A stretch of 64,000 bases of DNA, taken from assembly GCA_012517435.1 (NCBI GenBank), contig JAAYUY010000076.1, positions 1,609-65,608 on the forward strand, read 5' to 3'. Positions 201 through 55,000 of the stretch are shown here, piece by piece. The number at the start of each line of letters is the position of its first letter. Position 1 is the first letter of the stretch. The DNA is from Sphingobacteriales bacterium. Lineage in GTDB: Bacteria > Bacteroidota > Bacteroidia > CAILMK01 > JAAYUY01. The translations under genes were made by a program, and so were the position numbers. Below the pieces are notes generated by a model that was not told where the DNA came from, ran no database searches, and saw only the letters and a list, made by a program, of their open reading frames with translations.

Positions 201-207
201 TTAGCGG

Positions 208-2268: not shown

Positions 2269-2271
2269 TTT

Positions 2272-32369: not shown

Positions 32370-32375
32370 TCAGTC

Positions 32376-33824
32376 ATGTTAAAATCTCGCCTGATTATCA
32401 ATCTTTTAAGCCGGATTCTTATACTGGAAAGCATACTGATGGCTACTTCATTAAGCTTTTCAGCCTATTACGGGTACAGTGATTTCAAAGCCATTGCCCT
32501 TTCTTCGCTGATCACCTTTTCATGCGGTATCTTTTTGTTTTTTGTTACCAGAAAAACTGAATACAATGCCACCAAAAGAGAAGGCTACCTGATTGTCAGC
32601 CTTGGCTGGATTATTATTTCCTTGTTTGGCACACTGCCATACATCCTCAGCGGAGCCATTCCCGACTTTACTGATGCTTTTTTTGAAACCATGTCGGGCT
32701 TTACCACCACAGGAGCCTCTATTCTGACAGATATTGAAAAGATTCCCAAAGGAATACTATTCTGGCGTGCCATGACTCACTGGATCGGGGGAATGGGTAT
32801 TATTGTACTGACTGTAGCCATCATGCCCTTTCTGGGAGTTGGCGGGTTTCAGCTTTTTGCCGCTGAAGTACCGGGTATTTCAAAAGATAAACTCCATCCC
32901 CGGATTACCGAAACAGCCAAAAGACTTTGGGGACTTTATGCCCTTTTCACCTTAGCTGAAACCATTCTTCTTGTCCTTGGCGGCATGAACCTCCACGAAT
33001 CATTATGCCATTCTTTTGCCACCATGGCTACCGGTGGCTTCTCTACCCGAAATGCCAGCGCTGCTGCATTTTCTCCCTATATTCAGTATGTATTTATTGT
33101 CTTTATGTTTATTGCCGGAATAAATTTTACCCTTTCCTATCTCGCTGTCATCAAAGGTGATGTTAAAAAACTGTTTAAGGACGATGAATTCAAATTTTAC
33201 TCCACCTTTATTCTTTTATCGGCCTTTGTCATTGTTGTAGTTCTGGCCGTATTGCAACACCACGGAGTGGAGGAATCTTTCAGAAATGCTTTGTTTACGG
33301 TCGTTTCCATCATCACTACTACTGGCTTTGTCAATTGTAACTATGAAAACTGGGGTATTTTCGGGATGATGCTTGTGTTTATTTTAATGTTTATCGGTGG
33401 TTCATCAGGCTCCACGGGCGGCTCTGTCAAGTGTATCCGCCATCTTTTGTTGATAAGAAATGCCTCTCTCGAATTTAAAAGACTTGTCCATCCGCGAGCC
33501 GTTCTACCTGTCAGATATAACCAGCAAAGCGTTTCAAAAGATACCATTTCGCATGTCCTTGCCTTTTTCTTTTTATATGTGATTATCTTTATCGTCTCTT
33601 CTCTCCTGATGGTAGCTTTTGGCAGCGATATTGAAACCTCAATGGGATCTGTCGCTGCAACACTCGGAAATGTAGGCCCGGGTATCGGCCATGTAGGACC
33701 TGTAGAAAACTACGCCCATTTAAACATCGAATCCAAATGGCTTCTTTCTTTCGACATGTTGGTCGGACGTCTTGAATTGTTTACCGTCCTGATTATTTTC
33801 AGTAAAGCCTTCTGGAAAAAATAA
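32376..33824 (+). CDS. trkH: Trk-system K+ uptake transmembrane protein TrkH
   Basis: 482-aa polytopic membrane protein. It has TrkH/KtrB-family selectivity-filter-like motifs (MSGFTTTGASIL, MATGGFSTRNAS, GGSSGSTGGSVK). Its start is 6 nt after the trkA stop. Confidence 0.88.
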   Translation: MLKSRLIINLLSRILILESILMATSLSFSAYYGYSDFKAIALSSLITFSCGIFLFFVTRKTEYNATKREGYLIVSLGWIIISLFGTLPYILSGAIPDFTDAFFETMSGFTTTGASILTDIEKIPKGILFWRAMTHWIGGMGIIVLTVAIMPFLGVGGFQLFAAEVPGISKDKLHPRITETAKRLWGLYALFTLAETILLVLGGMNLHESLCHSFATMATGGFSTRNASAAAFSPYIQYVFIVFMFIAGINFTLSYLAVIKGDVKKLFKDDEFKFYSTFILLSAFVIVVVLAVLQHHGVEESFRNALFTVVSIITTTGFVNCNYENWGIFGMMLVFILMFIGGSSGSTGGSVKCIRHLLLIRNASLEFKRLVHPRAVLPVRYNQQSVSKDTISHVLAFFFLYVIIFIVSSLLMVAFGSDIETSMGSVAATLGNVGPGIGHVGPVENYAHLNIESKWLLSFDMLVGRLELFTVLIIFSKAFWKK

Positions 33825-33888
33825 ATTTGCATATCTGATTTAATTCTCAATTTTGATTCGAAATTAAAATGCTACTTTTTGCAAAATA

Positions 33889-35646
33889 ATGAAGTATTTT
33901 TCAGGCTCGGGCTTCAGGAATTTTCTTTTAAAATTCAATATTGTTTTTTCTCTGATTGTAATAACCACGCAGTTATATGATTTTGGATACCCTTCATCCC
34001 TGTACGGCCAGAAAAATATCCATACCTTTTACCAGATTGCAGCCATTGTTTACCTGCTCAACTTCATCGGTGAACTGATTTCTGAAAGATTGTTACTGTT
34101 GAGAATACTCAGGGAAAATCCGCTGAAATTTGCTTTTCATATACTCGGATTAATTGTTTTAATGGTTTCGTTTTCGAATGTAAGCATTTTGATTCAGGAC
34201 CTCGGATTTATATCTTCAAATCTGAATATCGAAACGGCTCTGATCGTATTTTTAAATGCCTATCTACTCCTAAATTCATTGATTATTATCGTTAAACTTA
34301 GAGAAAACTGGCTTTTTGTCTCTGCTAATCCATCAAAGGTTCTGTTTTTTTCCTTCGGTATTTTAATACTGACAGGGACATTGCTTTTAAAACTGCCAGC
34401 TTGTTCAAATTATCATCTTAGCTGGCCGGATGCTTTGTTTACCGCTACTTCAGCAGTTTGTGTAACAGGCCTTTCAACCATCAATATTGCTTATGCTCTG
34501 ACTTTTAAAGGGCAAATAATCTTAATGCTTTTAATTCAGGCTGGTGGGCTTAGTATTATTACTCTTACAACTTTTATCGCTTTGTTTTTCAGAAGGGGAT
34601 TTAAATTGAAAGACCAATTATTACTCCAATACATGTTTTCAGATGAAAATATCAGTTTTATAGAAAACATACTTAAAATTATCATTGGTGTCACTTTAAT
34701 TATAGAGACTTTTGGTGCCATATCATTTTTCTTTTCATGGCAGTATCTTCATCTTTCTTCAGGGCGACGCTTATTTCATGCTGTTTTTCACGCAGTCAGT
34801 GCTTATTGTAATGCAGGCTTTTCCGTTTTCCCTAATGGTTTTGAAGAAAATTTTCTCTCAACCAGTTATCCTACCCTAATTACAGCTATGATTCTTATTA
34901 TTCTTGGAGGAATTGGCTTTTATACCATCAGTGATATATTCAAATTTGAGCATAAAGAACATTTTAACATCCGGCCAAAAGGGCTTAGGCTACAAACACG
35001 AATCATTTTATCAGGAACAGGCATTCTTATTATTACAGGAGCCGTTTTAATCTGGTTTTTTCAATACCCGGAATGGAAAAATCTTCCGGTCGGACAACAA
35101 ATCATTTATTCATTATTCAACAGTGTTACCAGCAGAACAGCAGGATTCAGCTGTTACCCTGTTTCTAAAATGGCTATACCATCAGCGTTGATTATCATTT
35201 TGCTGATGTTTATAGGGGCATCACCCAATGGTACTGCTGGAGGTATAAAAATCACTACATTTTATACGGTAATATTAGCATTTTTCTCCTTTTCCCGTGG
35301 AAAAGAACGAGTAACTTCCGGCTGGAATACTATTCCTATGACCCTTGTCAGGAAGGCTTTTATTGTTTTTTTTGCCTCCATTTCTTTAATTTTTATTGCT
35401 GTATTGCTGATTTCATCTGTTGAAAAAAAAGACTTTTTTGACATTTTATTCGAAACAGTCAGTGCTTTTGGAACCGTTGGGTTGAGTAGGGGTATCACCC
35501 CTTTTCTGACAGATTTTAGCAAAATCGTCTTGGTGTGTGTGATGTATTTAGGCAGGGTTGGCCTTTACTCACTGGCCATTGCTGTTACAGATGAATTGGG
35601 ATCAAATGCATATAAATTTCCTGAAACAAGTTTAATGATTGGTTAA
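33889..35646 (+). CDS. TrkH/KtrB-family cation (K+) transporter membrane subunit with an N-terminal transmembrane extension
   Basis: 585-aa polytopic membrane protein. It has TrkH/KtrB motifs (TGLSTI, GASPNGTAGGIKITTF, FGTVGLSRG) plus ~150 extra N-terminal residues with additional transmembrane helices. Confidence 0.85.
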   Translation: MKYFSGSGFRNFLLKFNIVFSLIVITTQLYDFGYPSSLYGQKNIHTFYQIAAIVYLLNFIGELISERLLLLRILRENPLKFAFHILGLIVLMVSFSNVSILIQDLGFISSNLNIETALIVFLNAYLLLNSLIIIVKLRENWLFVSANPSKVLFFSFGILILTGTLLLKLPACSNYHLSWPDALFTATSAVCVTGLSTINIAYALTFKGQIILMLLIQAGGLSIITLTTFIALFFRRGFKLKDQLLLQYMFSDENISFIENILKIIIGVTLIIETFGAISFFFSWQYLHLSSGRRLFHAVFHAVSAYCNAGFSVFPNGFEENFLSTSYPTLITAMILIILGGIGFYTISDIFKFEHKEHFNIRPKGLRLQTRIILSGTGILIITGAVLIWFFQYPEWKNLPVGQQIIYSLFNSVTSRTAGFSCYPVSKMAIPSALIIILLMFIGASPNGTAGGIKITTFYTVILAFFSFSRGKERVTSGWNTIPMTLVRKAFIVFFASISLIFIAVLLISSVEKKDFFDILFETVSAFGTVGLSRGITPFLTDFSKIVLVCVMYLGRVGLYSLAIAVTDELGSNAYKFPETSLMIG

Positions 35647-35649
35647 TAT

Positions 35650-36339
35650 ATGAGCAAAACACAAAAATACGTTTTAATTGGCATGGGTGCTTTTGGCCAG
35701 GAAATAGCCTATACCCTGAAAGAGTACAATGCTGAGCTTATTATTATCGATAAAAATGCAGATACTGTCGCACAACTCAAACGCGATGGTTTTCCATTTG
35801 TCGTCCAACTCGACTCAACAGACGGCTTTTCACTTGAAAAATTTGTCTCTCCTGACGATATTGTCGTCCTTTCTATGGGCGAATCTTTTGAAGATAATAT
35901 CGTTACGGTTGGAATTCTGACCAGAATTGGTGTCAAAAAAATTTATACTCGTGCTACCCGGATTATTCATGAAGAAATTCTGAATCAGATGAAAAACACT
36001 ATTACTCTCTTCCCTGAACGTGAGGAAGGTAAACGGGTCGCTCTTAAACTGCTTTACAAAGAATTTTATTTAATTGAGGAAATTTCTCCGGGAATTTTTC
36101 TTTGTGAAATGGATGTCCCTGAATCATTTGTCGGCCAGACAATTATAGAACTTGATGTCAGAAACAAATATGGAATTAATATCATCGGACTGAAAAAGCA
36201 TTCTGAGGATAATGAAGGTCTCATTTCCTCTGAAATGCAGGTTATTGGTTTTGAAAAAGTAATACTTGAAAAAAATCATATACTTGCCTTTCTGGCTAAT
36301 GAGAAAAATATGGCTCAGATGTTAAAGCATAAATTCTGA
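35650..36339 (+). CDS. KtrA/TrkA-like RCK-domain K+ transport regulatory subunit
   Basis: 229 aa. The N-terminal Rossmann motif is VLIGMGAFGQEIAYTL, and a TrkA_C-type C-terminal domain follows. The start is 3 nt after the KtrB-like gene stop. Confidence 0.85.
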   Translation: MSKTQKYVLIGMGAFGQEIAYTLKEYNAELIIIDKNADTVAQLKRDGFPFVVQLDSTDGFSLEKFVSPDDIVVLSMGESFEDNIVTVGILTRIGVKKIYTRATRIIHEEILNQMKNTITLFPEREEGKRVALKLLYKEFYLIEEISPGIFLCEMDVPESFVGQTIIELDVRNKYGINIIGLKKHSEDNEGLISSEMQVIGFEKVILEKNHILAFLANEKNMAQMLKHKF

Positions 36340-36389: not shown

Positions 36390-39300
36390 CTAATATCCCT
36401 GCTGTATTTTAAATACCCGTTCAACCCAGATTTTGTTGTTAACATTCAGTCGGATGAAATAGATCCCGCCTGCCAGGCCTTCATCACCGAAAGCATATTC
36501 ATAACGCCCTGCCGGTAAGGCAGTATTGACCAGCACTTCGACTTCTTTACCATAAGCATCGTAAACACCCAGCTTTACATTTGAAAAGCTGTTAAGGTCG
36601 AAACGTATATTGGTGGATTGTTTAAACGGATTAGGATATACCAGCATTTTAAAACGTGCCTGATAAAGCTCTTCTTCACTCAGACAATTTGTAATTACTG
36701 CCGTATCAATCACATAGTTGTAACAACCATTATTTGAAATCACCAGCATAATGACGGGGTATTTTCCGTTGGCATTGTATTTATGAACCACTTTATGCCC
36801 TGAGGAAGTATCATTATCGCCAAAGCTCCAGTAGAAGGTGTTCAGGGTGTCGCCACCTGCCAAAAAGGTAGCCTCTCCGTTGCTGCCGTAAACAATGGTA
36901 AATTTAGCTTCGGGCAAAGGATATATTTCAATGGTTTTATACGCTGTATCTGCACATCCCTCATTGCTTACCGCTTCGAGGCTGATGGTATAAAATCCTG
37001 CCGTATCGTAAATATGTTCAGGATGCTGGCTTACCGACTGATGCTGGTCGCCAAAATCCCAGTTCCATGCGCTGATATATGCCGGACTATCCACAACCGA
37101 TTGATCCGTAAACCTGACCGTATCGCCCGCACAGCTGTTTTTTGTGTCAAATCCGGCAACCGGCATTTTCCAGATAAACACATCACGATAAGCGGAATCG
37201 GCACAGCCAAATCCTGATACAGCCTTTAGTTTTACTGCAAAATATCCGGTAGTGTCATAACTAAATACAGGATTTTTTACATGAGACACATATTTCGGAT
37301 CCGAAGTATTTTCTCCGGCAAAATACCAGGTAAACCGGAGAGTGTCTCCGATGACTGAACTCAGGTTGCTGAATTTAAACTTATTATCCCTGAAACATTG
37401 CTCGTTGTCATCTACATTGAAGCCGGCAACAGGCATTTTAACTACCACCACATATTTCATGACAGTATCGGAACATCCAAGATTACTTTCTGCCATCAGC
37501 CATACATGATAATTCCCTGCCATTTGATAAAAATGGCTTGTATTGACAGCTGTGGAAGTATCTCCGTCACCGAAAGACCAGATAAACTTCATGTTTCCGC
37601 TTTGAATGTAAGATGAATTACTGAAAACAAACAGGTTATTACTGAAACACTGGCTGTCGCTGTTCACCGAGAATGAGAGCTGAGGAGACGGGAACACATA
37701 GACTTCTTTAATCAGCGAATCTGTACAGCCAAGATTTGAAGTTGCCGTCAGTTTTACCGAAAAGGTATCTGCATTCAGGTAAATGTGGCTTGTGTTGGTT
37801 GAAGTTGAAGTATAGGCATCTCTGAAATCCCATAAATAGGTCATACTGCCGGAATTGATTTTCGACTGGTTGGTAAATACAAAATGATTGTGTTTAAAGC
37901 ATTGCATACTGTCGTTGATCACGAAATCCAACTGCGGGCTTGGCCAGATATATGTCTGACTAACAAAGGTATCGGCACAATTCTGAATGGAAATGGCTAT
38001 TAGTTTTACTGTAAATATTCCGTCCCTGTTATACTGATAAACGGGATGGGTGGCTGATGAAATGTTGCTGTCGCCAAAATCCCATGAGAATACCATATTT
38101 CCGGTATTCAGCGAAGATTGATTGGTGAAAACAAACTGATTCCCTGTCAGACACTGGTCTGTATCGTTTATTGCAAATTTTACGGAAGGCATTTCGTAAA
38201 CATATACTGTTGCTGATGAAACATCTGTACAGTTTTTATCAGAAACTGCAGTCAGTTCGACCAGATAATTACCATAAGCCGTATATGAATGCTGAGGATT
38301 GGTCTGAACGGAAGTAGTATTATCACCAAACTTCCATTGATAGCTCAGATTTCCGTAAGCCAATGCTGACTGATTGGTAAAGTCAAACTGATTGCCTTTC
38401 TGACACTGGTCTGTGTCATTAATTGTAAAGGTACTTGTTGGAGAAGGATAGACATAAACGGTCCGGATGGCAGAGTCTCCACAGTTTTTGTCTGAAATAG
38501 CCACCAGCCTGACAGAAAAAGTGTCGGCTGCAGAATAAGTGTGAGAATCATGGGTTTGAACAGATGTTGACCCGTCACCGAAATACCATTTGTAAGTAGA
38601 AAGGCCTTGTGCCAGCGTGGTCTGATTGGTCATTACAAAATTATTTCCGTTAAAACACTGGTCAGTGTCGTTCACCTTGAATGAGACAATCGGATTGGGA
38701 TTGACGGTTACTGTTTTTATCAGGCTATCAGGACAGTTTTTATCAGTTATGACCAATAGTTTGACATCAAAAGAGCCATAGGAAGTGTACTGTTTTGAAG
38801 GATTCGGCAAGGTGCCGGTGCTGTTGTCGCCAAATGACCAAAACTGGCTGAGTGTTCCGCTGCTCACCGTTGAGTTGTTGGTAAAACTGAACTGATTACC
38901 TGCCAGACATTGAACATCATTGTTGATGCTGAAGTTGGCCACCGGACTCGGATGGACGGTAACCGTTTTGGTCAGCGAATCCTTACAGCCATAGTTCGAG
39001 GTGGCTATCAGTTTCACCTGATAAGTGCCTGCAGCGGTATAGCTATGCTGTGGCGAAGTTTGGGCTGAGGTGCTGTTGTCTCCGAAGTTCCATAAATAAG
39101 TCAGTGTTCCGCTGCCTATGCCGGATTGATTGGTAAAGCTGAAACTGTTCCCATTTTTACATTGCTCTGTATTGTTGATGGCAAAGGCAACTGATGGATT
39201 TGCCCTGACATTCAGCGTTTTGGTTGTAGAGTCCTTGCAACCCTTGTCGGAGATAAGCAATAGTTTCACCGTATAAGAACCAAAACCGGCATACGAGTGA

Positions 39301-42300
39301 CTGGGGCTGGTCTGCGTGGAGCTGCTGTTGTCTCCGAAATCCCAGAGATTTGCAAAAGTTCCTGAACTGATGGAGGAAGTGTTTGTAAACACAAAATTAT
39401 TGTTCGTAAAACATTGTGAATCAGCATTTACACCAAACGAAGCCACCGGACTCGGATGGACGGTAACCGTTTTGGTCAGCGAGTCCTTACAGCCATAGTT
39501 CGAGGTGGCTATCAGCTTCACCTGATAAGTGCCTGCAGCGGTATAGCTATGCTGTGGTGAAGTTTGTGCTGAGGTGCTGTTGTCTCCGAAGTTCCATAAA
39601 TAAGTCAGTGTTCCGCTGCCGATGTTGGATTGATTGGTAAAGCTGAAACTGTTCCCATTTTTACATTGCTCTGTATTGTTGATGGCAAAAGAAACAGATG
39701 GATTTGCCCTGACATTCAGCGTTTTGGTTGTAGAATCCTTGCAACCCTTGTCGGAGATAAGCAATAGTTTCACCGTATAAGAACCAAAACCGGCATACGA
39801 GTGACTGGGGCTGGTCTGCGTGGAGCTGCTGTTGTCTCCGAAATCCCAGAGATTTGTAAACGTTCCTGAACTGATGGAGGAAGTGTTTGTAAACACAAAA
39901 TTATTGTTCGTAAAACATTGTGAATCAGCATTTACGCTAAACGAAGCCACCGGACTCGGATGGACGGTAACCGTTTTGGTCAGCGAGTCTTTACAGCCAT
40001 AGTTCGAGGTGGCTATCAGCTTTACCTGATAAGTGCCTGCAGCGGCATAGCTATGCTGTGGTGAAGTTTGTGCGGAGGTGCTGTTGTCTCCGAAGTTCCA
40101 TAAATAAGTCAGTGTTCCGCTGCCTATGCCGGATTGATTGGTAAAGCTGAAACTGTTCCCATTTTTACATTGCTCTGTATTGTTGATGGCAAAAGAAACA
40201 GATGGATTTGCCCTGACATAGACTGTTTTTGTCAGGCTGTCCTTACAACCAAAATCAGAAGTAACAACAAGCTTCACTATGAAAGAATCTGCTGTTGCAT
40301 AGCTATGTGAAGGATGCTGTTGGGTGGAAGTAGTGTTATCCCCAAAATCCCAACGATAGGTTATATTTCCGGAACTGATGGTCGATGAATTTGTAAAACT
40401 GAAATTATTTCCTGTCAGGCATTGCTCGGCAGTGTTGACACTGAACTGAACAGCAGGCTGCGGAAATACACGGATATTTTCAGTTACCGAATCAATACAG
40501 GCTTCATTGCTGATGGCTTTCAGCTTGACGGAATAAGTGTTGGCCGAGCTATAAGATTTTGAAGGACTTACAGAGGTCGAAGTGTCTCCGTTTCCGAAAT
40601 TCCAGAGATATGTCAAAGTTCCGCTACCGATTGAAGAATTGTTGGTAAACTTAAACGAATTTCCGCTCAGGCATTGGCTGTCGTTGTCAATGGTGAAGGA
40701 AGCAACAGGCATTTCAAAGACAGAAACTGTTTTTGTGACCGAATCCATACAGCCTTTGTCGGAAGTAATAATCTGACGGATATAATGAATACCTTTTGAA
40801 GTAAAAGATGTTGACGGATGCTGGCTGTTCGAAGTGGCTGAATTGTCGAAACGCCAGAGATAACTCATGCTTCCTGAGGCTATTTTGCTGGTATCGGTCA
40901 TCACAAAGTTATTGCCTGATAAGCATTGCCCGGTATCATTGATGGTAAAACCGGGCTGAGGCATGGGATAAACGTTAATGGTTTTATAGCTCGAATCGGA
41001 GCAGGAAGCATCGGAAGTAGCAATGAGCCACACATTGAAATTACCATGGGTGGTATAGGAATGGGTGGCTGTATCAGCAGTAGCAGTAGTGCCATCACCA
41101 AAACGCCACAGGCGGGTATAATTTCCACTGCTTAAGGTTGAAGTATTGTAAAAGTTGAAAGTGTTGCCATACAGACAATTTCCGGTAACAGGTGCTGAAA
41201 ATGAAACTACCGGAGTCGGATTGACCGTAACCATGACACTATCCGTATTCACACAGCCAAAGGAATCCTTCACCACAAGTTGATAAGCGGTGGTGGTGGT
41301 GGGAGAAGCTACCGGATTGCTGGCAGAATCGTCATTAAGCGTAGTGTAAGGCCGCCATGAATAGATATAGGGAGCTTTGGTTCCGCTGGCAGTGGGTGAT
41401 CCCCCGATAGTAACACTCTTACCGGAACAAATAGTTTTATCATTTCCTGCATTTGCAACAGGCAGGTTGAGAATCGGGAAATAATCGCTGAAACTCAGGC
41501 CTGCATCATTCAACGCATTGGTGATCAATATTCTGTAGTATTTTCCACTCACAATACTATCAGGCATTTCCCAGGTGTAAGTTGAATCGGTTATATCGAT
41601 GCCATTGGCAATAGGGACATAAGTTCTGCCACTGTCGGCTGTATATTTAATATTAATTAATGGTACTTCCACTTTTCGCCAGGCTATTGTTATGTCGGTA
41701 CCTTTACAATAAGCTGATAAGCTATCTGGTTTTACAATCATCTGGAAAGGCTTTATTTTGATGGTTGCCTCTCCTGTAGTTTTGGCTGCTTCCTTATTTC
41801 CCACATTGTCTTTTGCCCTTGTATAAAACCTGTATTCATTGCCATATTCACCCGAAAATATGGTAAAAGTATCGGCAATATCTTTTTTATACAGTGAGAA
41901 ATTTGAGCTGTTTTCAGAAACGTACAGATCATAGGTTTTGACACCTGAACCTTTGTTGTCGTCAGAACCTTTCCATGTAACCACCACTGAAGCCGTATCG
42001 ACTGAAGGAGGCAGGCTGTCCACCTTACTGTCGGGTGCTCCGGCATCAAACACATTGGCCCATGTATTGGTATAGATCGGGCTGTGAATATCGAATACAA
42101 TTTTGGCCTGAGCCTTAACGGTATCACTTGTTTTTACGGTTGTTTTCGGGAAAATATAAAAGCTGACAAATCCTTCTCCTCTATGGGTAATGCTGTCGTT
42201 GACGGGCAAAAAACCTTTGGAGGGATCGCTTGGCGGAAGACCATTATCAGGCCCGATGGATTCAAAAATCCAGAAAGCTTCTCCTTTTGTCGGGTCAATA

Positions 42301-44996
42301 CCAGCAATAAAATCGACATAAACGCCCAGAGAATCTTTCACATCAATCCGGGTGGCATAGCTTGTTTTATTAGCAGGAGCCTGAAAGGTAAAATCCCCGA
42401 AGCCAAAGTCTTTCAGCCGGAAAGTGTACATATCCATTTTGGGATCGAAGGGAAGCGTTACTATCACTCTCTGGGCAGGTGCGGAAGCAAATTTAGGATC
42501 GTTTTCAAAACGGACATTGTAATAAAGCGGGTCTGATTTACTGACGAAATGTTCAGGGCCAAAGCCTTCAGGGCCTGTAATATCGTTGGGGTCGCGTGAA
42601 CAAAGGATGGGAATAAACCAGACAAAGGTAGCTCCTGAAGCTTTACAACCATTGTCATCCACCACATCACAACGGTAAATACCTGTGGCACTGACCACCA
42701 GGGTCTGATTCGGCCAGCTATAGGTATAAGGGGCAGTTCCACCTGAAGCAACTGCCGTCAGGGTAACCGTTGGGTTTCCATCCTGCACACAGAAAGGAAT
42801 CACAGCCGGGCCTCCGAGAATATTTACATTTATTGGCAGGGGTTCTTCCACTGTCGTATCAGCATACCCTTTACACCCTCTGGCATCCTGTGCCATTACC
42901 TTGTAATATCCTGCCGGTACCGGAGCAAGGGTCTGTGTCCGTGCTCCTCCATAATTCCACAAATATGCAGAATATGGCAGTTCTCCCGAATGTGGTATGG
43001 CTTTAACCACGCCTGAAACATCACCGTGACATTTTATATCCTGCTTGGTAATGCCGACATAGGTCAATGAGTCAAAATTGAAATAATGTGCTTTATCGCT
43101 CTGTGAAGGGGTACTTGGTGTCCATGTTCCATTGCTGTTCAGCTTAGGAATATTGTTCCCCGACAGATTTGCCTGATTCTGAAATCCAAAAATATCCTGA
43201 TTGTAAAGGTCTTTTCCCGTAATAAAAAGTTTATGCTTTTTGTAAGTATGACCGGCTACCTTATCCACCGGAATGGTAAATTCCCATTTGGTCAGGGTAT
43301 CGGTGGCGGTATTCTTTTCTTCGGAATAACTCAGGGAAGGCACTTCGAGTTTGACACTTTTCATGGGCTCAGTGAGGTAAATGACTACTCTCACCGGTTT
43401 GTTACAAACAGCCACTGTATCCCTAATCAACTGATATTCATACCGGTTATTGGCAGACGACCAGTTCCACCGTGCATGATAAACCTTATTATTGTCTGCA
43501 TACACCTCCACTTCTCTGACCATTGGCCTGAAGTTTTGCACCATTACATTTTTGGTAAAAAAAGTATCATGTATCAGGTCACCAACCACTGCATAAACTT
43601 TATAAACCCCGTCAGGGAATTCCCATTCTCCCGGACTGCGGGCTTTATTGCCTGTGGGCCCTGCACCGTTCGACCATGTTTCCGTATTACGGGCATTGGT
43701 CGCCCACGACCTGCTATCATCAAGGTTTGTTTTTGAACCATTGAAACCGGAGGTATTGGTTAACAGCCATGTAAACCATTGCCAGAAATCATAGTCAGGA
43801 TCGGGCGTTACCGGTGGTTTTGAACGGTATGAATCCCAGGGAATAATCATTGCATTTAAAAGCGAATTTGATGTTTTATTGAAACTATCGCTTAAAAATT
43901 CATCACACTTAAATAACAAATAAGGAGAAGCAGCCGAACGAACAGTATCCACCCAGTTGTTGCCCACCTTTTTCCTGATATAATACCCCACCTTGTGTGG
44001 ATTTTGATAAAATCCGTTGGTGCTCATACGGTCCAGCAGCTCCCATTGAATATCCACTCTGTTGTAGGCTACAGTGTCAACAGTAGTATTGGTCCAGTTG
44101 CTGTCGAGCAGAAATTTAAAATACTTATTATCATCATTGGTATTCAGGGTAACAGGTTTATTGTTCCCGGGATCTTTGTCTTCATTCGATAAATACATTT
44201 GTAAAGCATGCCTTGTACCTGCCAGCATGGTAACACCATTTAACCAGCGGTGAAAATGAATATGATAACACTGGGTATTCCAGAAACTATCCACTATTTC
44301 ACCAATGGTATCTCCAGCCTTTATGGAAGTTCCAACGGTCAGGTATGGCCTGAGGTTTTTCATGTGGTTGTACTGGTAATATTGATTTACCCCGTTAATA
44401 AAAACCTGGACATTGATATATTTTCCGGTCTCTCCCTGTCCAAATGAAACAATCTGTCCGCTGAATGAGGCAATAACGGTTTCTGTCTTGTAATTATAGT
44501 CCCCGTTAATATCGACTCCTTCATGAAAATATTTATCCCCGCCTGCCATGATGGGTTGGTTAAAATTATGCATCAGATTACGGCTGGGACCGGTTTTAGC
44601 CTGATTCAATACAGGCCAGTATCTCTTAACATAAGTAAACTTTGTGCTCGAAGCGCTCCACACGCCTGCTTTTTTTACACCCATGTTAAAAGTAATGGTA
44701 TCTCCTTCCGAAAAATTAAAATTGTACCATTTACTGGTCAGATTTGAGGCTACTGTGCTGTCCCAATTGGAAAAATTACCCGAGTTTACTTTATATCTGA
44801 TCCGGTATGCCTGACACGGGGTATCCGCTGCCCATACAATAATAGCACTGTTATGGGAATAATCAGGTATAACAGATTTTATAACCGGCTGTGCCTTAAG
44901 ACTCATGGAGCCCGCCAGGAGGAATATTGTTAAAAGAAGATACTTCATCAAACAATTGTATTGAGCTTCTTTATACATTTTAGTTAATCCTTTCAT
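36390..44996 (-). CDS. Giant (2868 aa) T9SS-secreted surface protein. It has an FN3-like domain, an M23 peptidase domain, SprB repeats, an FN3 domain, 20-plus PKD domains and a type-A CTD.
   Basis: Uninterrupted ORF. The signal peptide is [20 protein letters not shown], so an alternative start at 44945 is possible. The C-terminus ([34 protein letters not shown]...[25 protein letters not shown]) matches the type-A CTD. The stop is convergent with ktrA-like. The annotated start lies 2 nt after the stop of the 340-aa gene. Confidence 0.92.
   Translation of the reverse strand: [2868 protein letters not shown]
38951..40217 (-). repeat. In-frame tandem DNA repeat of 504-bp units (two PKD domains each), about 2.5 near-identical copies
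   Basis: accggactcggatggacggtaaccgttttggtcagcga recurs at 38941, 39445 and 39949, an exact 504-bp period. The protein unit [24 protein letters not shown]...DSTTKTLNV repeats with a few substitutions. Confidence 0.88.
44219..44579 (-). other. M23 (LytM/lysostaphin-type) metallopeptidase domain within the 2868-aa protein
   Basis: Residues ~140-260. The HxxxD motif is HEGVD at 158-162 and the HxH motif is HIHFH at 244-248. They are ~82 aa apart, with a GDTIGEIV glycine-rich segment before HxH. This is the canonical M23 zinc-ligand arrangement. Confidence 0.65.
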
Positions 44997-44998
44997 AA

Positions 44999-46021
44999 TT
45001 ACCTGTTTAATTGAAGTTTAACCAATTGCTTCCCCGTCCTCAGCAGAATTTTATCCTTCCCTTCAAAAACTGCCATCCGGTAGGGTTCCCAGAATGGCGA
45101 CTCATTTATCTCAATTTCTGAAATCAGTTTTCCGTCTTTCAGGCTGATAGCCGACAGGTGATAGACGTTTCCCGAACCTAATGAAACAACAATAAAGTAA
45201 TCCTTATCAGCAGAAATGGTGATGGGATATCTGCTGAAGGTTTTGCCGGGCAGAACTCCTGAAAAAATAGGTTTTGCCCCATTATTTATGCTATAGAGTT
45301 TCCAGCCGTTTTCTTCTGTCACAATAAACTGTTTTTCGGAAATAAATTCAATTCCGCCAACACTCAGCGTATGATTCAGGCTGAAAAGTTTAGCTCCTTT
45401 ATCATCGTAAAAATCCGTAATAAAACTCATGCTTTCCTCTTTGAGGTAAGTGACAGCCATCAGTTCTCCACCGGGAGAAAGATTGACGGCCTGCGGAATG
45501 CAGTCTTCCATCCTGATTTCCCACTGAATATTCCCGTTTTTATCAACTTTCTTCAGGTATGGCAGGGAGTGAATGCTATCGATGTCCACATGGGCAAAGG
45601 CATAAAAATCACCTCCTGCAGAAGCAGCCACGGCATAAGGTGCATGACCTATTACTCCGACATTTTTAATCCAGTTCCCGTTTGTTTTTAAAACATGAAG
45701 TTCAAGGTTGTAATCTGTGTAAAAACCAGGTTCTTCTCCGTAATTAAATAATCTTTCAGCCTCCGGAACCACGATAAACATCCCAAGGGGTTTTTGTATT
45801 TCCATCCGCTGATTGTTGTAAGTAACAAATAACTCAGCCGGTTTTTCCACATAAAAATATCCTTCGAAACTTCCCGTAATAATTCCCTTGTTATCAGGCA
45901 GGTCGTTGATATTGTAATTCCTTGTGTAAGACACAGAAGATAAAATACGAAATCCGTTTTCCTGCGCTAAAACAAGGTGTGTCGAAAATACGGATAATAC
46001 TATCAAAATCCATTTATTCAT
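44999..46021 (-). CDS. Hypothetical secreted protein (340 aa) with beta-propeller-like (PQQ/BamB-like) repeats
   Basis: The signal peptide is MNKWILIVLSVFSTHLVLAQ. Several repeated strand motifs are present (GxxYAFAHVD, NGNIQWEI, ENGWKLYSI, GNVYHLSAISLKDGKLISEI). The stop is 2 nt before the start of the 2868-aa gene. The start is 23 nt after the stop of the 5482-aa gene. Confidence 0.75.
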   Translation of the reverse strand: MNKWILIVLSVFSTHLVLAQENGFRILSSVSYTRNYNINDLPDNKGIITGSFEGYFYVEKPAELFVTYNNQRMEIQKPLGMFIVVPEAERLFNYGEEPGFYTDYNLELHVLKTNGNWIKNVGVIGHAPYAVAASAGGDFYAFAHVDIDSIHSLPYLKKVDKNGNIQWEIRMEDCIPQAVNLSPGGELMAVTYLKEESMSFITDFYDDKGAKLFSLNHTLSVGGIEFISEKQFIVTEENGWKLYSINNGAKPIFSGVLPGKTFSRYPITISADKDYFIVVSLGSGNVYHLSAISLKDGKLISEIEINESPFWEPYRMAVFEGKDKILLRTGKQLVKLQLNR

Positions 46022-46044: not shown

Positions 46045-49000
46045 CTATTTAATTTCAGGCAACATGATCTGGAAGCCAAGACCGGCAGTTGACTTTGTAT
46101 AAATCAGGACAGAGCCGTAAGCACCCGGTCGAATGACCCATTGCGGGCCGTTCAGCTCCTTGAGCATAAAGGTCAGTTCGGTCTTTTTATTCTCAAGATC
46201 CGGAACACTCATTCCGACAGGCGCCAGAGCAAGACTTTTCAGGATAATGGTAGGCACATCAATATCTGTATTACCCACGTTGGCAAAATCGAGCGACATG
46301 GCCGTAATCGCAGAAGGCCTGACGTTGGCTGGTTTTGAAATACTGACCTGAAGGTCGGATGCCACTCCATTTACAATTTCAAAGCCCTTTATCAGTTTTG
46401 CCGTATCAGGCTTACTTGTTTTGATGGCTACCACATCATATTTGCCCAGCTTCGCACCCGCAAGGTTGTAGGTAACGAAAACCTTTGTCGGGTCAACATA
46501 AACAAGGGTGTCAGGCTCATAGACGGCACTGTCGTTTTGTAAAATAACCGTCATGGTGGTATCGAATTTACTTCCGCTGACAATTACGGTTACTTTCCCT
46601 GTATTTCCACCCTGGTTGGCACTGATTCCCCTGACTTCAAAATGAAGAATTTTCGCCATTAACCCTATTTTCTGCATGCTCCCTACCATCGTATAGCCGT
46701 AAACCATGATATAATAAGTACTGTCTTCCAGTGATGGCACTATTATTTCCTGATTGCCGTGGAAAGGCTCTGAATATGCATAATCGTAAACATTTCGGGT
46801 CGGTACCTTCAGATAACTGAGATACAACTCATTATCACCATTAACAGAATCACCGTACAGATTTAGTAACAGCGTTTCGGATTTCAGGGTATCGTGGCTT
46901 TCGAGTTTGAAATAGACCTCTGAATTATCATAAAGTGTATCGTAGGTCATGGTGTACCATGGCAGGTTCTGCACATTGACCTTCATGGTATCCACAGAAA
47001 TTTTTTCATTGTTGTTGTCATTGGTCTCATTGATGTTAGTAAGTATATCCGTCCTGACAATCACATAATAATAACCCAGCGTAACCCCTTTCAGTTGTTT
47101 TGTCATATTCTTTGAAACCTCCGTGTTGGGCGACAATCCGATGGTGTACTGATTCGTTCCGAACAATACGTCATTGACATCCCACTGATTGTCTTTTGAA
47201 ATATAAATGGCATCCCTGATGTAGCCTGTGGCGGGATTGATACCTGTATTTTTGATTTTGTAGGTAATGGTTGCTGATTTACCTGCAACGGCATTGAGTG
47301 GAAATCCGATATGAGAAACAATCAGGTCGCAGGGTGGAGCGGCAGTAATGGATATGGGGGCGCCCATGATGTTGTTGTCTTCTCCGTTATGCTCGTATTC
47401 TGCATCTGTGGCATCTGTTTTCAGTAAAATAATGCGGTTACCGGTGATATTTGAAGGTAAAAAGACCTGCTGACTCTGGTTGTAAGACGAGTTCACCGCC
47501 AATGAGGACGTTCGTTGAAAACTTCCTAGTAAGACATCGCTGCCGTCAATAGTAAAGTCAGCCGACAGATATATTCTGTCTTCAAAGGTAACACTGGTTG
47601 CTGCCTGCCCCTGATTTTTAACAGTCCACGTCACGGTAACGGGCTGTCCGGAGGTTCCGGTAGCTGGCGAATTGACAGATGTGGGTTTCAGGTCGGGTGT
47701 GAGGGTAAGCTTGATAAATATTTTCTTCATCTTATTCTGTGCGTCTGTCCTCGCCCGGTAATTATTGCTCAGGTTGACATCGTTGTTGTTGTTGTTTTCA
47801 TCCGTTACCACCAACAGGTAATAATTTCCTGTTATTCCGTTGGGCAGAGTCACATTAATGTTTTTCGTGTATGAAGCATTGGCTGCCAGCTGGGTTGTCA
47901 TGTCTTCACGGTTGATCAGGATGTCGGTGGCAGGGCTCCAGATGGAATCAGTTGAAAGATAGACCGCATTTTTGTAAGACGGAGCTAAACTCTTCCCCTG
48001 ACCATTGTTTTTAACCGAATAGGCAATGGCAAATGTTTTTCCTGAAGAGCCGGTGTCTCCGCAGGTTACATTGTAGATCATGAAATCAACCGGAGGATAG
48101 GCTTTGATATAAATAGGACGGAAAGAAGAGTTGTTGCTGTTTGAGGTATGCTCATAAATCTTGTCTTCATAATCTGTATAAACATGCAGGTAATATATTC
48201 CTGCAGTCAGGTTTGTTGCCAGTCCGGCCATGGTGGTGATATTGTAGGAATCACTGACGGCAAGCGAAGTTGGCCTGATCACATCTTTAAGTAAACTTGC
48301 TGTTGAAGAATTAAATACCGAGTCTTTTGAAATAAACACATTGTCTTTCCAAGATGAACCGGTAGCAGTAGCAGTTCCTTTGTTGGTAACCGTGAAATGA
48401 ACCGTTATCGGATCACCTGCTGTGGCAGTGTCGGGAGCTGATATTTCAACTACCTGAAGGTCAGGCCATGGGGACAAGGTAACCGTTATGGATGTATCGG
48501 CTTTTTTAGTGTTATTGTTTTCTCCCCCTGCTTCAAAGACATTATTGACTGCATCGGTGGCAATATACAGATAGTAAACACCTGAATATCCGTTGGGAAT
48601 GGTAATATTTGACGTTAACAGGTATTCATTGTTCACATTCATGCTTACAGAAGCAATGGTAATTTCCTGCAGAAATACTGCAGTGGAAGAATTGAATGTT
48701 GAATAAGGGGAAATATAGATTTTGTCTTTCCAGCCTCTGTTGATAATTTTTCCCGGGCCTGTGTTTTTATCTTTCCATTTGATATTAATGCTTGTTCCTG
48801 AATAGGCAGTTGCCGGATTTGAAATCCATGAAACTGTCAGGTCAGGCGATTTGATATAAATGGAATCGGGATCAGAAACATTGTTGTTTTCATAAGTGTA
48901 TTCATAAACACTGTTAAAACAGTCAGTTTTAACAAAAATGTAATATTTTCCGTTAATTCCTGTAGGAATGGTTATATTGCCCGGCAAAGTATCTGTCTGG

Positions 49001-52000
49001 CCGGGAGACAGGTCTTGTGAATGATAACGGGTGGCAAGCAGGATTGACCCTGATTCACTGAAAGTGCGGGAGGCAGAAATATAAATTTTATCATACCAGG
49101 AGCTTTCCGGATCATTTCCTCCCTGATTTTTAAGGTAATAGCTCATGCCAAGGGTTTCGTTATTGCTGGCACTGTCGGGGACATCTGTTCCGGTAACAAC
49201 CAGATCTGGCGGAGGAGTCAGAATGATTGAAATAGCATCACTTCTTTTCACATTGTTGTTTTCCCATGCATGCTCATATTCACTGTTGAAATAGTCCGTT
49301 TTAACAAAAATATAATAGGTCCCGAATATAGCATTGGGAATTGATACGGTTTTAGCTGCATTATACGTGCTGTTGACCAGCAACTGTCCATTATGATATA
49401 CATTTCCGAGATAATAACAATTGGCCGGATCAAAGGTGGTATCCTGTCCCAGATAAAGTGCATCGTACCAGTAATTGGTTACAGTGTTGCCGGTTCCCTT
49501 GTTCTGCACTGTCCATGAAACATTGGCATTTGTACCACTGTAAATCGTGTTTGGACGCACAATCGAAATGACCTGAAGGTCCGGAGGCGGAGTCAGTTGT
49601 ATCTGAAGGGTTGAGGAATTATAACCTTTATTATTGTTTTCATTTGACTCAGTCAGGGCAGAAAATTTATCGGTGATAAGGATAACGTAATAATTGCCCG
49701 ATAGTCCCTGCGGAATGGTGAATGTTTCCGTCTGATTATAGCTCACTCCGGATCCGAGTGAACTGAGATTGCTGACAGCTCCCAGATAAAAATCAACATT
49801 TTCATCCAGGTTGGTGTCTGATGATAAATAAGCTACATCAAACCATTCCGTGGAAAGGGTGCTGCCTGTTCCGGTATTTTTTATCTGCCACGACACATTG
49901 AAAGTCTGTCCTGAATATGCAGTCGAAGGTACCGTTACACTATTGACAATCAGGTCGGGGAGATACCTGACCGTAAATTTCTGAATATTTCCGGCAGTCT
50001 GACAGAATATACTCTTTGCCACAATCTGCCATTTATAAGTTTTGCCATATTGTAGGCTACCGTTGTAGGTGTAGGTAATCTGTGTAATGTTGGCAACCGT
50101 TGGGCTTACGGGTTTATTTTCCGTTTCAGGCCAGATATACAGATCATAACTGTTGGCTCCTGAGGCCGGAGACCATGAAAATGTTACCGGCAGGGCTACA
50201 TTCTGTGCAGTATCAACGGGCAGCATATTGCTGATGGCTCCCGGATAAGGATAATTGCTGAAATTATAGATAAAGGTATCATTTGAATGAATAGTATCTC
50301 CGCTGAGATTGGTCCAGCAAATCAGGGTATGATTTCCCTGCGTTGAAATATTCAGTACGGTATCGAATTTATATACATAGCTGCTTCCCTTTGGTATGGT
50401 AAGCGAACCAATATTCCTGACTACCACCTGCTGATTGTCGAATTTGTAATAAACATTGAAGTTGCTCTGTGACTGACCGCCAAAATTCTGGATTTTGACC
50501 CTGACGGTATCGCTTGACAGTCCGCACCCTGAAACAGGAGCTATAACAGCCGAAATCCCGACATCATGACTGACATAAGTAAACTCATCGGCTCCGATAT
50601 CAGGATAATTGGTATTACGGTTTTGATTGTCAATATCCTTTGTGATCCCTGTCACCGGAACAGCTGCACTGTCGAGTAATACCTGCGAAATGTGCAGATC
50701 GGTAGTGCTGTAAAACAAAGGATCCAATGATTTTGAATTATTATCCTGTCCGCTTGCCGACCTCCATGCTGACAAATCTGTTCGGTTTCCGCCCCAGTAA
50801 CCGAGAACAGATCCTGCAGAATAATGGTCGTTGTAATTCGAGTAAACAATAGCCGAAGTATTACTGATATAACAGGCATAACCTCCTCCGGTATTGGCAA
50901 AAATATTATTTTGCAAAACCACATTGGCATTGCCGTTTTCAACAAACAAAGCCCTGCTCCCTGTATGCGTATTACTGACGTTTATCGAATTGTAAATGAA
51001 ATCGGTATAGTCACAGAAGTTCATCACAACAGCAGAGGAAGAAGCAGTTCCTCCCAGTTGAAAGAAGTTGTTATAGATCTTCATTTTATTTGAAGAAGAA
51101 CCGTCTGCATCATACAATTGAAGGGAATAAGCTGATTTTTCAGAGCTGATTTTATTACCATAAATTTTCGGGCCATTGTTGGCTGTATTGATTGATATAG
51201 CTCCCTGGTAATTATTTACAGATGAAGAAAAGGTGTTGAAGGCTATCACCGGCTCACTTTGTCCATACAGAAAGACACCGGAAACAGACTGATTTTCAAA
51301 TATATTTCCGTAAATATAGGTTCCGCTTTCGTAAGACCCTGACAATCCGTATAGGCGAATGCCAAAACTTCCGTTATTAAATACATTGTAGCTGAATTCA
51401 TTTCCAATATCATTGTCTCCTGAAGAATATACATTGCTGAAGAAGTCGGAGGAATTAGTGGTTGAAACGCCTTCAAATCGGCAATTCCGGAACTTGTTAT
51501 AGTTGGCACCACCAAGGAGTTCAACGCCCCTTGCATAATAATTATGAATGGGCTGGAAGGTCATTTTCTTAAAGGTAACATAATCTGCACCGTTAAGCCT
51601 GAGTACATAGTTGTCTGAACTGTTGCCCTGATAGGTCAGGGTTACCAGATTGCTGTCGTTTCCTTCAGATTGAAAAGTAATCTGATTAACCGATGAACTT
51701 CCGGGAATTTGTCCGATGGATAGCTGTTCGTTGTAAACTCCTGTCCTGACATTAAACACAACCGCACCTACCACCCCGCCAAGATTCAGGATGTTGGCTG
51801 CTGCACCAAAACTAATAAAGTCAGGATTGCTGCCGCCAATGGTATAAGTCCCGCTTAAAGCTGCATAGAGATTCAGGGTTCTTGCCGTATCATTGGTATT
51901 CAGCGAGTCTCTGACACCATTCGGATTATAGGTATAGGCAACCAGGTTATAGGCAATGACTGTTTTAAATATATAATTACCAATGACTACCGTATCGTAT

Positions 52001-55000
52001 CTGCCTGGCAAAATGCTACCGCTCCAGCTCTTTGGCGTTTGAGAAATTCCATTGACCGACCATTTGATGGTTACTGTGGTAAGCGTATCGTATCCGAAAT
52101 TTTTCAATAAAACCTTCACCGGCAGGGTATCAGCAGGAAATGGAACAGCTGGATCGATAAAGCTCACAATACCAGCGTCATCGGAATAAGGTGCTTCAAA
52201 TTCATCCGCACCAATATCGGGTTTGCTGGCATGTCGTGTTTCTCCGTCAATATCCGCTGTTATGCCTGCAATTGGAGTACCTGCTTCGTTCAGCGTGATT
52301 TCACGAACATGTAAATCTGAATTTGAAACATATTGCGGATCTACTGAAATGGATGTTGCATCCAGACCAGTGGCACTTTTCCATGCTGCAAGGCTGCTGA
52401 TGTTACCGTTGTAATAAGCCAGATAATTTCCTTTTGAATAAATATTATTATATCCGGATGTAATTCCACTGGCAGTGCTGATATAATAAGCATACCCTGC
52501 TCCCCTGTTCACAATATTATTGTTTAACAAATTGATATTGTTTACACTATACAGATACAACGCCCGGCTGCCCGTTGCTGAGCCTGAAGTTATATTAATG
52601 TTGTTGAAATAAACATTGTGGTAAGACGAGTAATACAAATACAAACCTGTCGGATTAGATGTATTTCCGCCCACATAAATAAAATTGTTGTAAATATTTC
52701 CCTTGTAAGTTGATGTCCCATTGCTGTTGGATAAATAAATCCCAAAATACCCTGCCGGAACACTGATTTTATTACCCGCTATTTTGGTGGCATTCCGGCA
52801 ATCATACAGATAAACACCTATCGAATAGGAATAATAGGAAGACAGGTTGATAACATTGTTTTCAATTATCAGCCCGTCATGATAATAAGCATAAATGCCG
52901 TAATAAACAGCATTCTGAATGATGTTGCCCTTAATCTGTACTCCCGTTGAACCGGATGAACTGCTTCCAATAAGATAAACTCCGAAACTCCCATATTGAA
53001 TAACATTGTTCAGCAGGTTCAGGTGATGATTATTCCCTCCCTGAATATTAAACACACTGTAACTTGTAGAAGTAACATTACCGTTATACCCCTGAACCAC
53101 ATTGCCGGAGAATGTATTGTAAACGGCATCATTTGAAACCTGTATAACCGTACCGTAATATCCGGATGAGGCGGTTGTCCGTATGGTCATTTTTCTGAAG
53201 GTAATATAATCTGCTCCATCCAGATAAAGTGTGTAGTTATCATTATCGGTGTTCCAGCTAAGGAAAACCTGTGTACTGTCGCCAGACTCTGACTGGAATA
53301 CCACACTCCTTGACGACAAAGTTCCCGGGTATGAATTGATTTTCACCCGCTCGGTATAAATGCCGTTCCTGACATTAAAGATAACATTTCCTAAAATGCC
53401 GCCATTGTTTAAAATATTTACTGCATCGGAAAAGCTGTTAAAATCGGGTGAACTCCCGCCAATGGTGTAGGTTCCGTTCAATGCAGCATAAAGAACTGCC
53501 GATAACATTGTGTCGTTGGTATTAAAGGAGTCTGCATTTCCGTTTGGATTCACGGAATAAACTTTTATCTGGTAAGCTGTACCAATATTGAAATCAAATT
53601 TTCCGATGGTAACTGTATCTGAATTCCCGGTCAGCAGACTGCCCGACCAGTTATAGTCATTTTGACTGACTCCGTTTACTTTCCATTTGATGGTAACGGA
53701 TTTCAGCGTATCAGCGCCATAATTGGTAAGAACGACCCTCACCAGATTGGTATCAGCCGGAAATGGCACTGTCGGTGAGACAATGTCGTTGATTCCGGCA
53801 TCATCCTGAAGTGGCGGAGTAAATTCGTCAGCACCAATATCAGGGCGGGTGTTGTCGCGTGGCTCACCGTCTATGTCAACTGTAACTTCAGCTATGGGTG
53901 TTGCGGCTTTGTTTAAGGCTACCTCCTGAACATGTAAATCATTATTACTGTTGAACAAGGGATCTTTGGAAATAGAATTTGCATCTTTTCCGCTGGCTGC
54001 CTTCAGACCTGTCAGGGTGCTGATGTTTCCGTTCCAATAGGCGAGATAGGTGCCTCCTGTGTAAAAATTGTTGTAGTTGCTGGTACTGATAGTCGAAGTA
54101 CTGCTCACATAATATGCATAACCGGTTTTACAGGAAAATATATTATTTACCACATTAACATTTGAACCACCATAAATATAAAACGCATCACTTGAAGAAC
54201 TTGTATGATAAACATTAATGGAGTTGTAATAAAAATTACTGTAATAAGTATAGTAATTATACATTCCATAACCATAGGTATAAGTTCCGTTTATCGCAAT
54301 AAAATTGTTGGCAATCAGATTATACTCATTGGAGTTCCCCTGAACATTATATAAATACAATCCAAAGCCATCATTCTGGATGATTCTGTTGCCGGTAATA
54401 ACCGTCCGGTTGTAGCAATAATCAAGCTCTATACTCTCCATGTAATTATACGTTGAAGCCTGAAGGTTAATATAATTGTCTTTAATCACCAGATAACTCT
54501 GATTATATGCATAAATAGCGATATAACTGATGGAGTCAATTACATTCTTTTCAATTAAAGTGTTTTGCTGGTATCCTGAAGGTCCATATAGCCAAATTGC
54601 TGAAGCACCTTTCCGGATTACATTACCTGAAATGGTCAGATTATTTACGATCTGATAATTGTTGAATATCAGGAAATTATCGGATGATGTACTGCTATAA
54701 TTCGAACCGATAATAAGATTGTTTTTTAAAGAACAGTTCAAAGCATTGTTTGTAAGTTCGATTACCCTGCCATAAGAGCCATTTAATGCCTTGAGGGTCA
54801 TGTACCTGAATGTCAGATAATCGGCTCCGTTAAACCTGATCGTATAATTATTTGAAGAATTAGAGGAATACTGAAGTACGACTTTGGTACTATCCAGACT
54901 TTCCGACTGAAAAATGATAGTATTACTTGCTGAAGTCCCAGTAATTTCCGTAATATCGAGCTGTTCGGTATAAACTCCGTTTCTGACATTAAACACGACA

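Follow-up and report, generated by a model that had tools for sequence, protein, structure and literature searches.

A putative M23 metallopeptidase heading a predicted type IX secretion cargo, encoded beside a conserved beta-propeller gene in Bacteroidota

Results

The stretch of DNA analysed here (the window) comprises 64,000 nucleotides of a Sphingobacteriales metagenome-assembled genome (MAG) (NCBI GenBank assembly GCA_012517435.1, contig JAAYUY010000076.1, positions 1,609 to 65,608 of the forward strand). Its minus strand carries a 2868 amino acid (aa) open reading frame (ORF) that is predicted to encode a type IX secretion system (T9SS) cargo with an M23 zinc metallopeptidase towards its N-terminus, and a small beta-propeller gene lies directly upstream. 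A preliminary description of this DNA, made from its letters and ORF translations, had placed an M23 domain at 44219-44579 at the head of a giant surface adhesin. That segment corresponds to aa 140-260 of the ORF, where Pfam does recognise the domain above its threshold. The layout of the protein is as follows.

36390-44996, minus strand: ORF of 2868 aa, M23-headed T9SS type A cargo (ORF list, Pfam and NCBIfam scans)
44892-44948, minus strand: probable Sec signal peptide, aa 17-35 (direct reading of the translation)
44622-44891, minus strand: N-terminal domain of ~90 aa, aa 36-125, FN3-like by sequence pattern alone (alignments)
44211-44618, minus strand: M23 metallopeptidase domain, aa 127-262; the Pfam match, aa 157-255, is 44232-44528
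44511-44525, minus strand: HEGVD motif, aa 158-162, with the expected zinc ligands H158 (44523-44525) and D162 (44511-44513)
44364-44366, minus strand: H211 within YNHM, counterpart of LytM His260 and lysostaphin His329 (water activation)
44256-44264, minus strand: HIH motif with catalytic H245 and zinc ligand H247; the longer HIHFH is aa 245-249, 44250-44264
43065-44210, minus strand: family-specific extension, aa 263-644, predicted beta-sandwich domains
42597-43064, minus strand: two SprB repeats within aa 645-800 (38.6 bits against a cut-off of 28)
42042-42599, minus strand: DUF7619 region, about aa 800-985 (Pfam)
36672-41129, minus strand: array of ~17 PKD domains forming the stalk, approximately aa 1290-2775 (boundaries approximate, from the translation)
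36408-36641, minus strand: T9SS type A C-terminal sorting domain, aa 2786-2863 (PF18962, TIGR04183)

Both ends of the protein carry the signals of a T9SS type A cargo. The N-terminal Sec signal peptide is apparent from direct reading of the translation, and the sorting domain scores above the cut-off with both models (PF18962, 29.8 bits against 27; TIGR04183, 28.5 bits against 23). Alignment with one homologue (P0005) begins at aa 16, and judging from the sequence translation may start at M17 instead of M1. The preliminary description was right to place the enzyme on a T9SS cargo with a PKD/SprB stalk, given the type A sorting domain, 17 PKD domains and two SprB repeats; the latter fall below threshold when the whole protein is scanned and become significant when aa 645-800 are scanned alone. 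A Kre9-like Ig domain was also matched by Pfam. The fusion is indeed in the N-terminal region, although not at the extreme N-terminus as had been supposed, as the signal peptide and the ~90-aa domain come first. In alignments this leading domain is kept in Bacteroidota-type members of the family described below and missing from short non-T9SS relatives, and it drew zero Pfam matches even at E<=1. The extension that follows the enzyme found no sequence match in Pfam, NCBIfam or the PDB; its invariant positions include D275/P276, T413/N414, F460/D462 and E543/M545.

The M23 assignment is well supported. Peptidase_M23 scores 37.3 bits over aa 157-255, well beyond its gathering score of 28.7 (E 3.2e-9), and a family profile of 20 relatives, searched against the PDB, matched LytU, lysostaphin, LysTt72 and LytM with E values of 4e-8 to 1e-6. 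A single-sequence phmmer search against the PDB had placed HxxxD four residues off against LytM, and the family profile was used instead; in lysostaphin, it pairs HeGvD with HYGVD, ynHl with YMHL and HtHl with HLHF. The hallmarks of M23 enzymes are H(x)nD and HxH motifs, with water activated by the first His of HxH and a His ~30 residues upstream of it (PMC9662197). All five catalytic residues are found here (H158, D162, H211, H245 and H247), H211 lying 34 residues ahead of H245. The preliminary description had correctly read HEGVD and HIHFH as the ligand motifs and the signature as complete, while omitting H211; its distance of ~82 aa between the motifs is in fact 87 residues from H158 to H245, and the H246 it named for mutation is an isoleucine flanked by the histidines H245 and H247. 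The Hx3D spacing of HEGVD is of the M23B type, and by its sequence the domain belongs to M23B. An AF2 structure model of aa 120-650 (pLDDT 89.8, pTM 0.88) points the same way, its first domain superposing on LytM and lysostaphin with Foldseek TM scores of 0.65-0.67 and also matching Csd3, so that the model has the M23 beta-sheet fold.

An exhaustive HMMER search was run with the first 644 residues as query, the matches being counted as clusters at 50% identity. The family comprises 193 clusters at E<1e-3 and 31 at E<1e-30; a word-indexed homologue search gave only 3-4 relatives, and none with a 20-sequence profile, and greatly under-reports it. Most of the best matches are 1000-3100 aa long and align along all 644 residues from their own N-terminus, and we refer to the leading domain, the M23 domain and the ~380-aa beta-sandwich extension as a conserved N-terminal module of ~644 aa. 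What had been called an unusual fusion is in fact the usual layout of a family that is conserved and has no name. In the 23 closest full-length relatives (21-62% identical to the query) H158, G160, D162, H211, H245 and H247 are invariant, and the sorting domain Por_Secre_tail is found in 17, DUF7619 in 15 and SprB in 11. Pfam recognises M23 in just 7 of these 23 proteins, which marks the subfamily as divergent.

The wider family was sampled through 99 representatives that cover the M23 region and are mutually less than 50% identical. The H-D-H-H-H set is retained in 97 of them, and the module lies no more than 260 aa from the N-terminus in 96. A type-A-like tail is present in 24 of the 99; of the 40 with a length of 900 aa or more, 22 have one, and contig fragments account for many of the shorter sequences. 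With the five residues aligned to those of lysostaphin, LytM and LytU and so widely retained, the M23 domain is probably catalytically active, as had been proposed from the sequence. The preliminary description had named a lost catalytic ligand as the sign of a degenerate binding domain; the alignment shows none lost, and that objection falls away.

More distant relatives lack the T9SS tail, and some end, as judged by eye, in transmembrane or PEP-CTERM-like anchors. Hydrophobic or PEP-CTERM-like tails were seen in the same way to replace the T9SS domain in five members (P0031, P0038, P0041, P0050 and P0051), and a distant non-T9SS member (P0004) has an SdrD B-like domain in its C-terminal region. 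The sequences suggest that the same enzyme head is displayed by other anchoring routes in other phyla, and what unites the family, as far as it can be read from sequence, is that the enzyme forms the N-terminal head and the C-terminus serves for anchoring or sorting. RefSeq names for members include 'Calx-beta domain-containing', 'MopE-related' and 'T9SS type A sorting domain-containing', and two carriers are cultured, Foetidibacter luteolus YG09 (pair WP_153799392.1 and WP_153799393.1) and Paraflavitalea sp. CAU 1676 (pair WP_275832723.1 and WP_275832721.1).

Directly upstream of the M23 gene, on the same strand and with its stop codon 2 nt from the start of the M23 ORF, lies a small partner gene.

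44999-46021, minus strand: partner gene, 340 aa, with a signal peptide and a predicted seven-bladed WD40-like beta-propeller (NLJ06887.1, annotated hypothetical)

Its family profile matches a WD40 propeller (E 7e-35), and the structure model is also a propeller. A role for this neighbour as a PorP/SprF anchor was considered and ruled out, as neither Pfam nor NCBIfam gave a match and both profile and model indicate a propeller. Conservation of the pair was assessed in 14 distinct related loci, namely this window, seven genome loci, one metagenome locus with called genes (L001), and every metagenome locus in which the relative was at least 30% identical and the DNA reached far enough upstream; named sources include Foetidibacter, Paraflavitalea, Niastella, a Calditrichaceae MAG and other Bacteroidota. 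A propeller homologue lies directly upstream of the M23 gene in the same orientation in all 14. In the nine loci measured, 2-24 nt separate the two genes (13 nt by the gene calls of L001, 11-24 nt across the seven genome loci). Every propeller copy read has a visible signal peptide and none has a sorting domain, and the protein should therefore remain in the periplasm. This is what would be looked for in an effector-immunity pair, a conserved adjacent gene (14 of 14 loci) whose signal-peptide-bearing product would reside in the compartment to be protected. At one metagenome locus (L002, JGI 3300086397, 408-1466) a 352-aa HEAT-repeat protein with a prepilin-like N-terminus takes the place of the propeller upstream of P0004, and it may be an analogous partner of another fold.

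The pair is in turn preceded by a second giant gene, and further large cargo genes lie elsewhere in the window.

46045-62493, minus strand: upstream giant, 5482 aa, with a signal peptide, GEVED, beta-helix/NosD and eight CARDB domains
62566-63312, minus strand: 248-aa protein with weak coiled-coil-type matches only, 72 nt upstream of the 5482-aa gene
31026-36339, plus strand: four consecutive potassium-uptake genes, two TrkA-like and two TrkH-like, between the two giant-gene groups
2272-30489, minus strand: ORF of 9405 aa, N-terminal beta-helix/NosD and BNR-associated, with C-terminal PKD, SprB and a type A sorting domain (43.5 bits)
208-2268, minus strand: 686-aa protein, five PKD domains, sorting domain of type B (CHU_C / TIGR04131), directly downstream of the 9405-aa gene

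Neither Pfam nor NCBIfam found a T9SS sorting domain in the 5482-aa giant, and scanning the last 500 aa at E<=1 brought none to light. In 10 of the 14 loci the gene immediately upstream of the propeller gene encodes a product with 36-69% identity to the giant's last ~1200 aa, and the order giant, propeller, M23 protein, with tight junctions, is kept in those 10. In the remaining four (L004, L005, L009 and L001/L016) the giant is missing and the propeller-M23 pair is kept, the neighbours being a T9SS cargo, an H+-pyrophosphatase, a penicillin-binding protein and C25/C1 peptidases. Comparison of the two counts (14 of 14 against 10 of 14) defines the propeller and M23 protein as the strict unit, to which the giant is added in the common form. 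The 248-aa gene may be the first gene of the giant's transcription unit.

Two of the giant-less loci deserve comment. At L001 (JGI 3300017991, 1-8692) two Peptidase_C25 (gingipain-like) genes and a Peptidase_C1 gene with a lectin domain precede the propeller-M23 pair, which hints at a neighbourhood of secreted hydrolases; L016 carries a near-identical partner (99%). L009 (JADCRZ010000038.1) belongs to a MAG labelled Williamsia, an actinobacterial name, and encodes the propeller together with a T9SS type A, M23-headed protein (MBE7173166.1), so that this contig is probably mis-binned. In the window itself, the 686-aa type B and 9405-aa type A proteins bring both kinds of sorting domain together, and on its sequence the window can be called an island of giant T9SS cargos.

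Discussion

On balance, and with moderate confidence, we favour the interpretation that the ORF encodes a T9SS cargo headed by a catalytically competent, divergent M23B zinc endopeptidase together with its ~380-aa beta-sandwich extension, and that this head acts on peptidoglycan outside the producer. Cargos of the T9SS fold in the periplasm, cross the translocon and lose the sorting domain to PorU, after which they are released or linked to lipopolysaccharide (PMC10202324). By analogy, the 2868-aa protein would pass the inner membrane via Sec, fold in the periplasm and leave through the T9SS translocon, whereupon PorU would remove the sorting domain and the protein would then either be set free or have its new C-terminus attached to surface lipopolysaccharide. 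In the attached case the enzyme would sit at the distal end of a stalk of ~25 Ig-like domains with a length, roughly estimated, of the order of 100 nm. Going by M23B chemistry, the head would hydrolyse stem-peptide or cross-bridge peptide bonds of peptidoglycan outside the producer, its substrate being the walls of nearby bacteria or of prey, or else wall debris, and the extension domains may aid substrate binding.

A folded, wall-cutting cargo in the producer's own periplasm would be expected to need control, and the propeller is the candidate controller. There is precedent on both sides of this idea, in that proteolytic T9SS cargos are held inactive in the periplasm (PMC10202324), and the peptidoglycan hydrolase Tse1 has a periplasmic immunity protein, Tsi1, that forms a partial beta-propeller (PMC3391265). 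The propeller is most likely a dedicated partner that would bind the head during periplasmic transit as an inhibitor, immunity protein or chaperone, although this is the weakest step of the scheme; more specifically, and by analogy with such pairs, it may be a periplasmic inhibitor or immunity protein.

Several observations weigh against this interpretation, or at least complicate it. The residues preceding HxH read DSFWNTQCY, and neither the glycine-rich segment described earlier nor the canonical GxTGxSTGP is present; taken with the recognition of M23 by Pfam in so few close relatives, this means that specificity may differ from that of the characterised enzymes. The counterpart of the LytM oxyanion residue Tyr204 would be Y156, two residues before H158, yet a tyrosine occupies this position in only 36 of 100 aligned sequences (query included), and by alignment the LytM oxyanion tyrosine appears to lack a clearly conserved counterpart in the family. 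The isoelectric point of the M23 domain is 8.05 here against a family median of 5.5, the family being mostly acidic, whereas staphylolytic bacteriocin-type M23 enzymes are basic; as a pointer to the target this is not decisive. A type A cargo may be released instead of tethered, and a tethered enzyme would find the peptidoglycan of Gram-negative neighbours protected behind their outer membrane. The case for a T9SS in this host is drawn from the cargos encoded in one window of a Sphingobacteriales MAG. Finally, the partner gene is upstream, not downstream, of the enzyme gene, and this position, together with a giant lacking a sorting domain alongside in 10 of 14 loci, fits assembly as well as it fits immunity.

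Assembly is one of the two better-surviving alternatives, although we hold it to be a tentative one. The propeller would here be an assembly or export factor bridging the 5482-aa giant to the M23 protein, or a chaperone of long cargos, with all three products forming one surface structure. The conserved order and tight junctions of the three genes would be expected under this idea, as would a giant that has a signal peptide and no sorting domain detected by Pfam or NCBIfam, and WD40 propellers, BamB-like proteins included, are typical scaffolds. It sits less easily with the four giant-less loci, where propeller and M23 protein survive as a pair.

About as possible, and likewise short of our preference, is that the enzyme serves feeding, degrading the peptidoglycan of dead cells or debris caught by an adhesive stalk, in a community where dead microbial biomass is plentiful. 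The setting, an island of giant adhesin-like T9SS cargos, is suitable; the M23 domains of the family are mostly acidic, unlike those of the bacteriocin type; and exposed sacculi demand no breaching of an outer membrane. Feeding alone would leave the strictly conserved partner gene unexplained, and in any case it is compatible with antagonism and does not exclude it.

It seems to us rather unlikely that the head is an active peptidase with a protein substrate, whether in the maturation or release of the co-encoded giants or of itself, or on glycine-rich extracellular proteins, as with the M23A enzymes LasA and pseudoalterin on elastin. The unusual groove loop and the conserved cassette would suit such a role. 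Against it stand the M23B-type Hx3D, where LasA has Hx12D (PMC9662197), the fact that the top sequence and profile matches (LytU, lysostaphin, LysTt72 and LytM) are peptidoglycan hydrolases, and the absence of the giant from 4 of 14 loci in which enzyme and propeller persist. The remaining alternative, a degenerate, non-catalytic LytM-type binding module (like EnvC, NlpD, SpoIIQ or Csd2) serving as an adhesive or anchoring tip, is very improbable and essentially excluded by conservation, as the five catalytic residues are present here and retained in 97 of 99 diverged representatives.

Comparison with known systems helps to define what is particular about the peptidoglycan-directed cargo that we favour. 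LytM, lysostaphin and LytU, the glycyl-glycine endopeptidases of staphylococci (MEROPS M23B), share with the M23 head the fold, the Hx3D spacing and the five active-site residues in the same order, at about 23-28% identity over roughly 120 aligned residues. They are, however, small secreted or wall-bound proteins of Gram-positive bacteria with SH3b or pro-regions, whereas the head studied here rides on a 2868-aa T9SS cargo, lacks GxTGxSTGP, continues into an extension without known relatives and is co-encoded with a propeller. Phage M23 domains (phi29 gp13, the internal protein of cyanophage A4, LysTt72) likewise place an M23 enzyme on a large delivery structure for local opening of the wall; they are structural matches to the M23 domain alone, and are viral and of another architecture.

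As regards secretion, the protein shares its signal peptide and PF18962/TIGR04183 domain with T9SS type A cargos such as the gingipains and many Bacteroidota adhesins and hydrolases, which likewise have a multi-domain Ig-like stalk and an enzyme far from the C-terminal anchor. It also resembles SprB of Flavobacterium johnsoniae, a giant, repetitive, T9SS-exported surface protein with SprB repeats. SprB itself is a type B sorting-domain cargo. The 2868-aa protein differs in its type A domain, in having only two SprB repeats and an enzyme head, and in its propeller neighbour, which is not a beta-barrel. Type B cargos depend on a neighbouring PorP/SprF protein (PMC10202324), and because our protein has a type A domain and no such neighbour it is not an SprB orthologue. 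In the literature searched we found no M23 T9SS cargo, only housekeeping M23 proteins or unrelated work.

Control and function have their own parallels. In the gingipains an N-terminal prodomain keeps the enzyme silent while it is in the periplasm (PMC10202324), whereas here a separate, conserved gene is the candidate. The Tse1-Tsi1 type VI pair of Pseudomonas aeruginosa couples a peptidoglycan hydrolase with a co-encoded, signal-peptide-bearing, propeller-like periplasmic blocker (PMC3391265), although the enzyme family and secretion system are different, the effector is injected and not tethered, Tsi1 is a partial propeller, and no sequence relation was detected. Among T9SS cargos the nearest functional analogy is GhpA, the grappling hook of the ixotrophic predator Aureispira, which is also a T9SS-exported Bacteroidota surface structure that contacts other bacteria (PMC12428579). 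GhpA only captures prey, killing being left to the type VI secretion system (PMC12428579), while in our case the cargo itself bears a putative lytic enzyme. The preliminary description had suggested a contact-dependent bacteriolytic weapon, an idea to which the conserved propeller gene, as a possible immunity gene, would lend indirect support. In its furthest form this would make the cassette a new contact-dependent means for Bacteroidota and their relatives to attack other bacteria, with a tethered lytic head, a stalk of ~100 nm and periplasmic immunity from the propeller, the giant perhaps belonging to the same apparatus; we consider this stronger form improbable, if worth stating.

The M23B enzyme type and the T9SS route are already known; for the subfamily, its extension, the constant partner gene and the cassette of three genes, the literature searched held no description. 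Adhesins, proteases and enzymes that degrade glycans are the familiar kinds of T9SS cargo. A peptidoglycan-cutting cargo, or one with a dedicated partner, was not found in the literature searched. The family is invisible in current annotation, with members carrying generic names and the partner listed as 'hypothetical', and since neither extension nor partner has a curated family, defining them would improve the annotation of roughly 190 clusters. With two carriers in culture, F. luteolus YG09 and Paraflavitalea sp. CAU 1676, the hypothesis is open to direct test. If the interpretation is correct, how T9SS producers shield their own wall from a folded lytic cargo in the periplasm becomes a general question, and if the head is active on foreign walls, Bacteroidota would gain a tethered lytic tool for antagonism, predation or the recycling of biomass.

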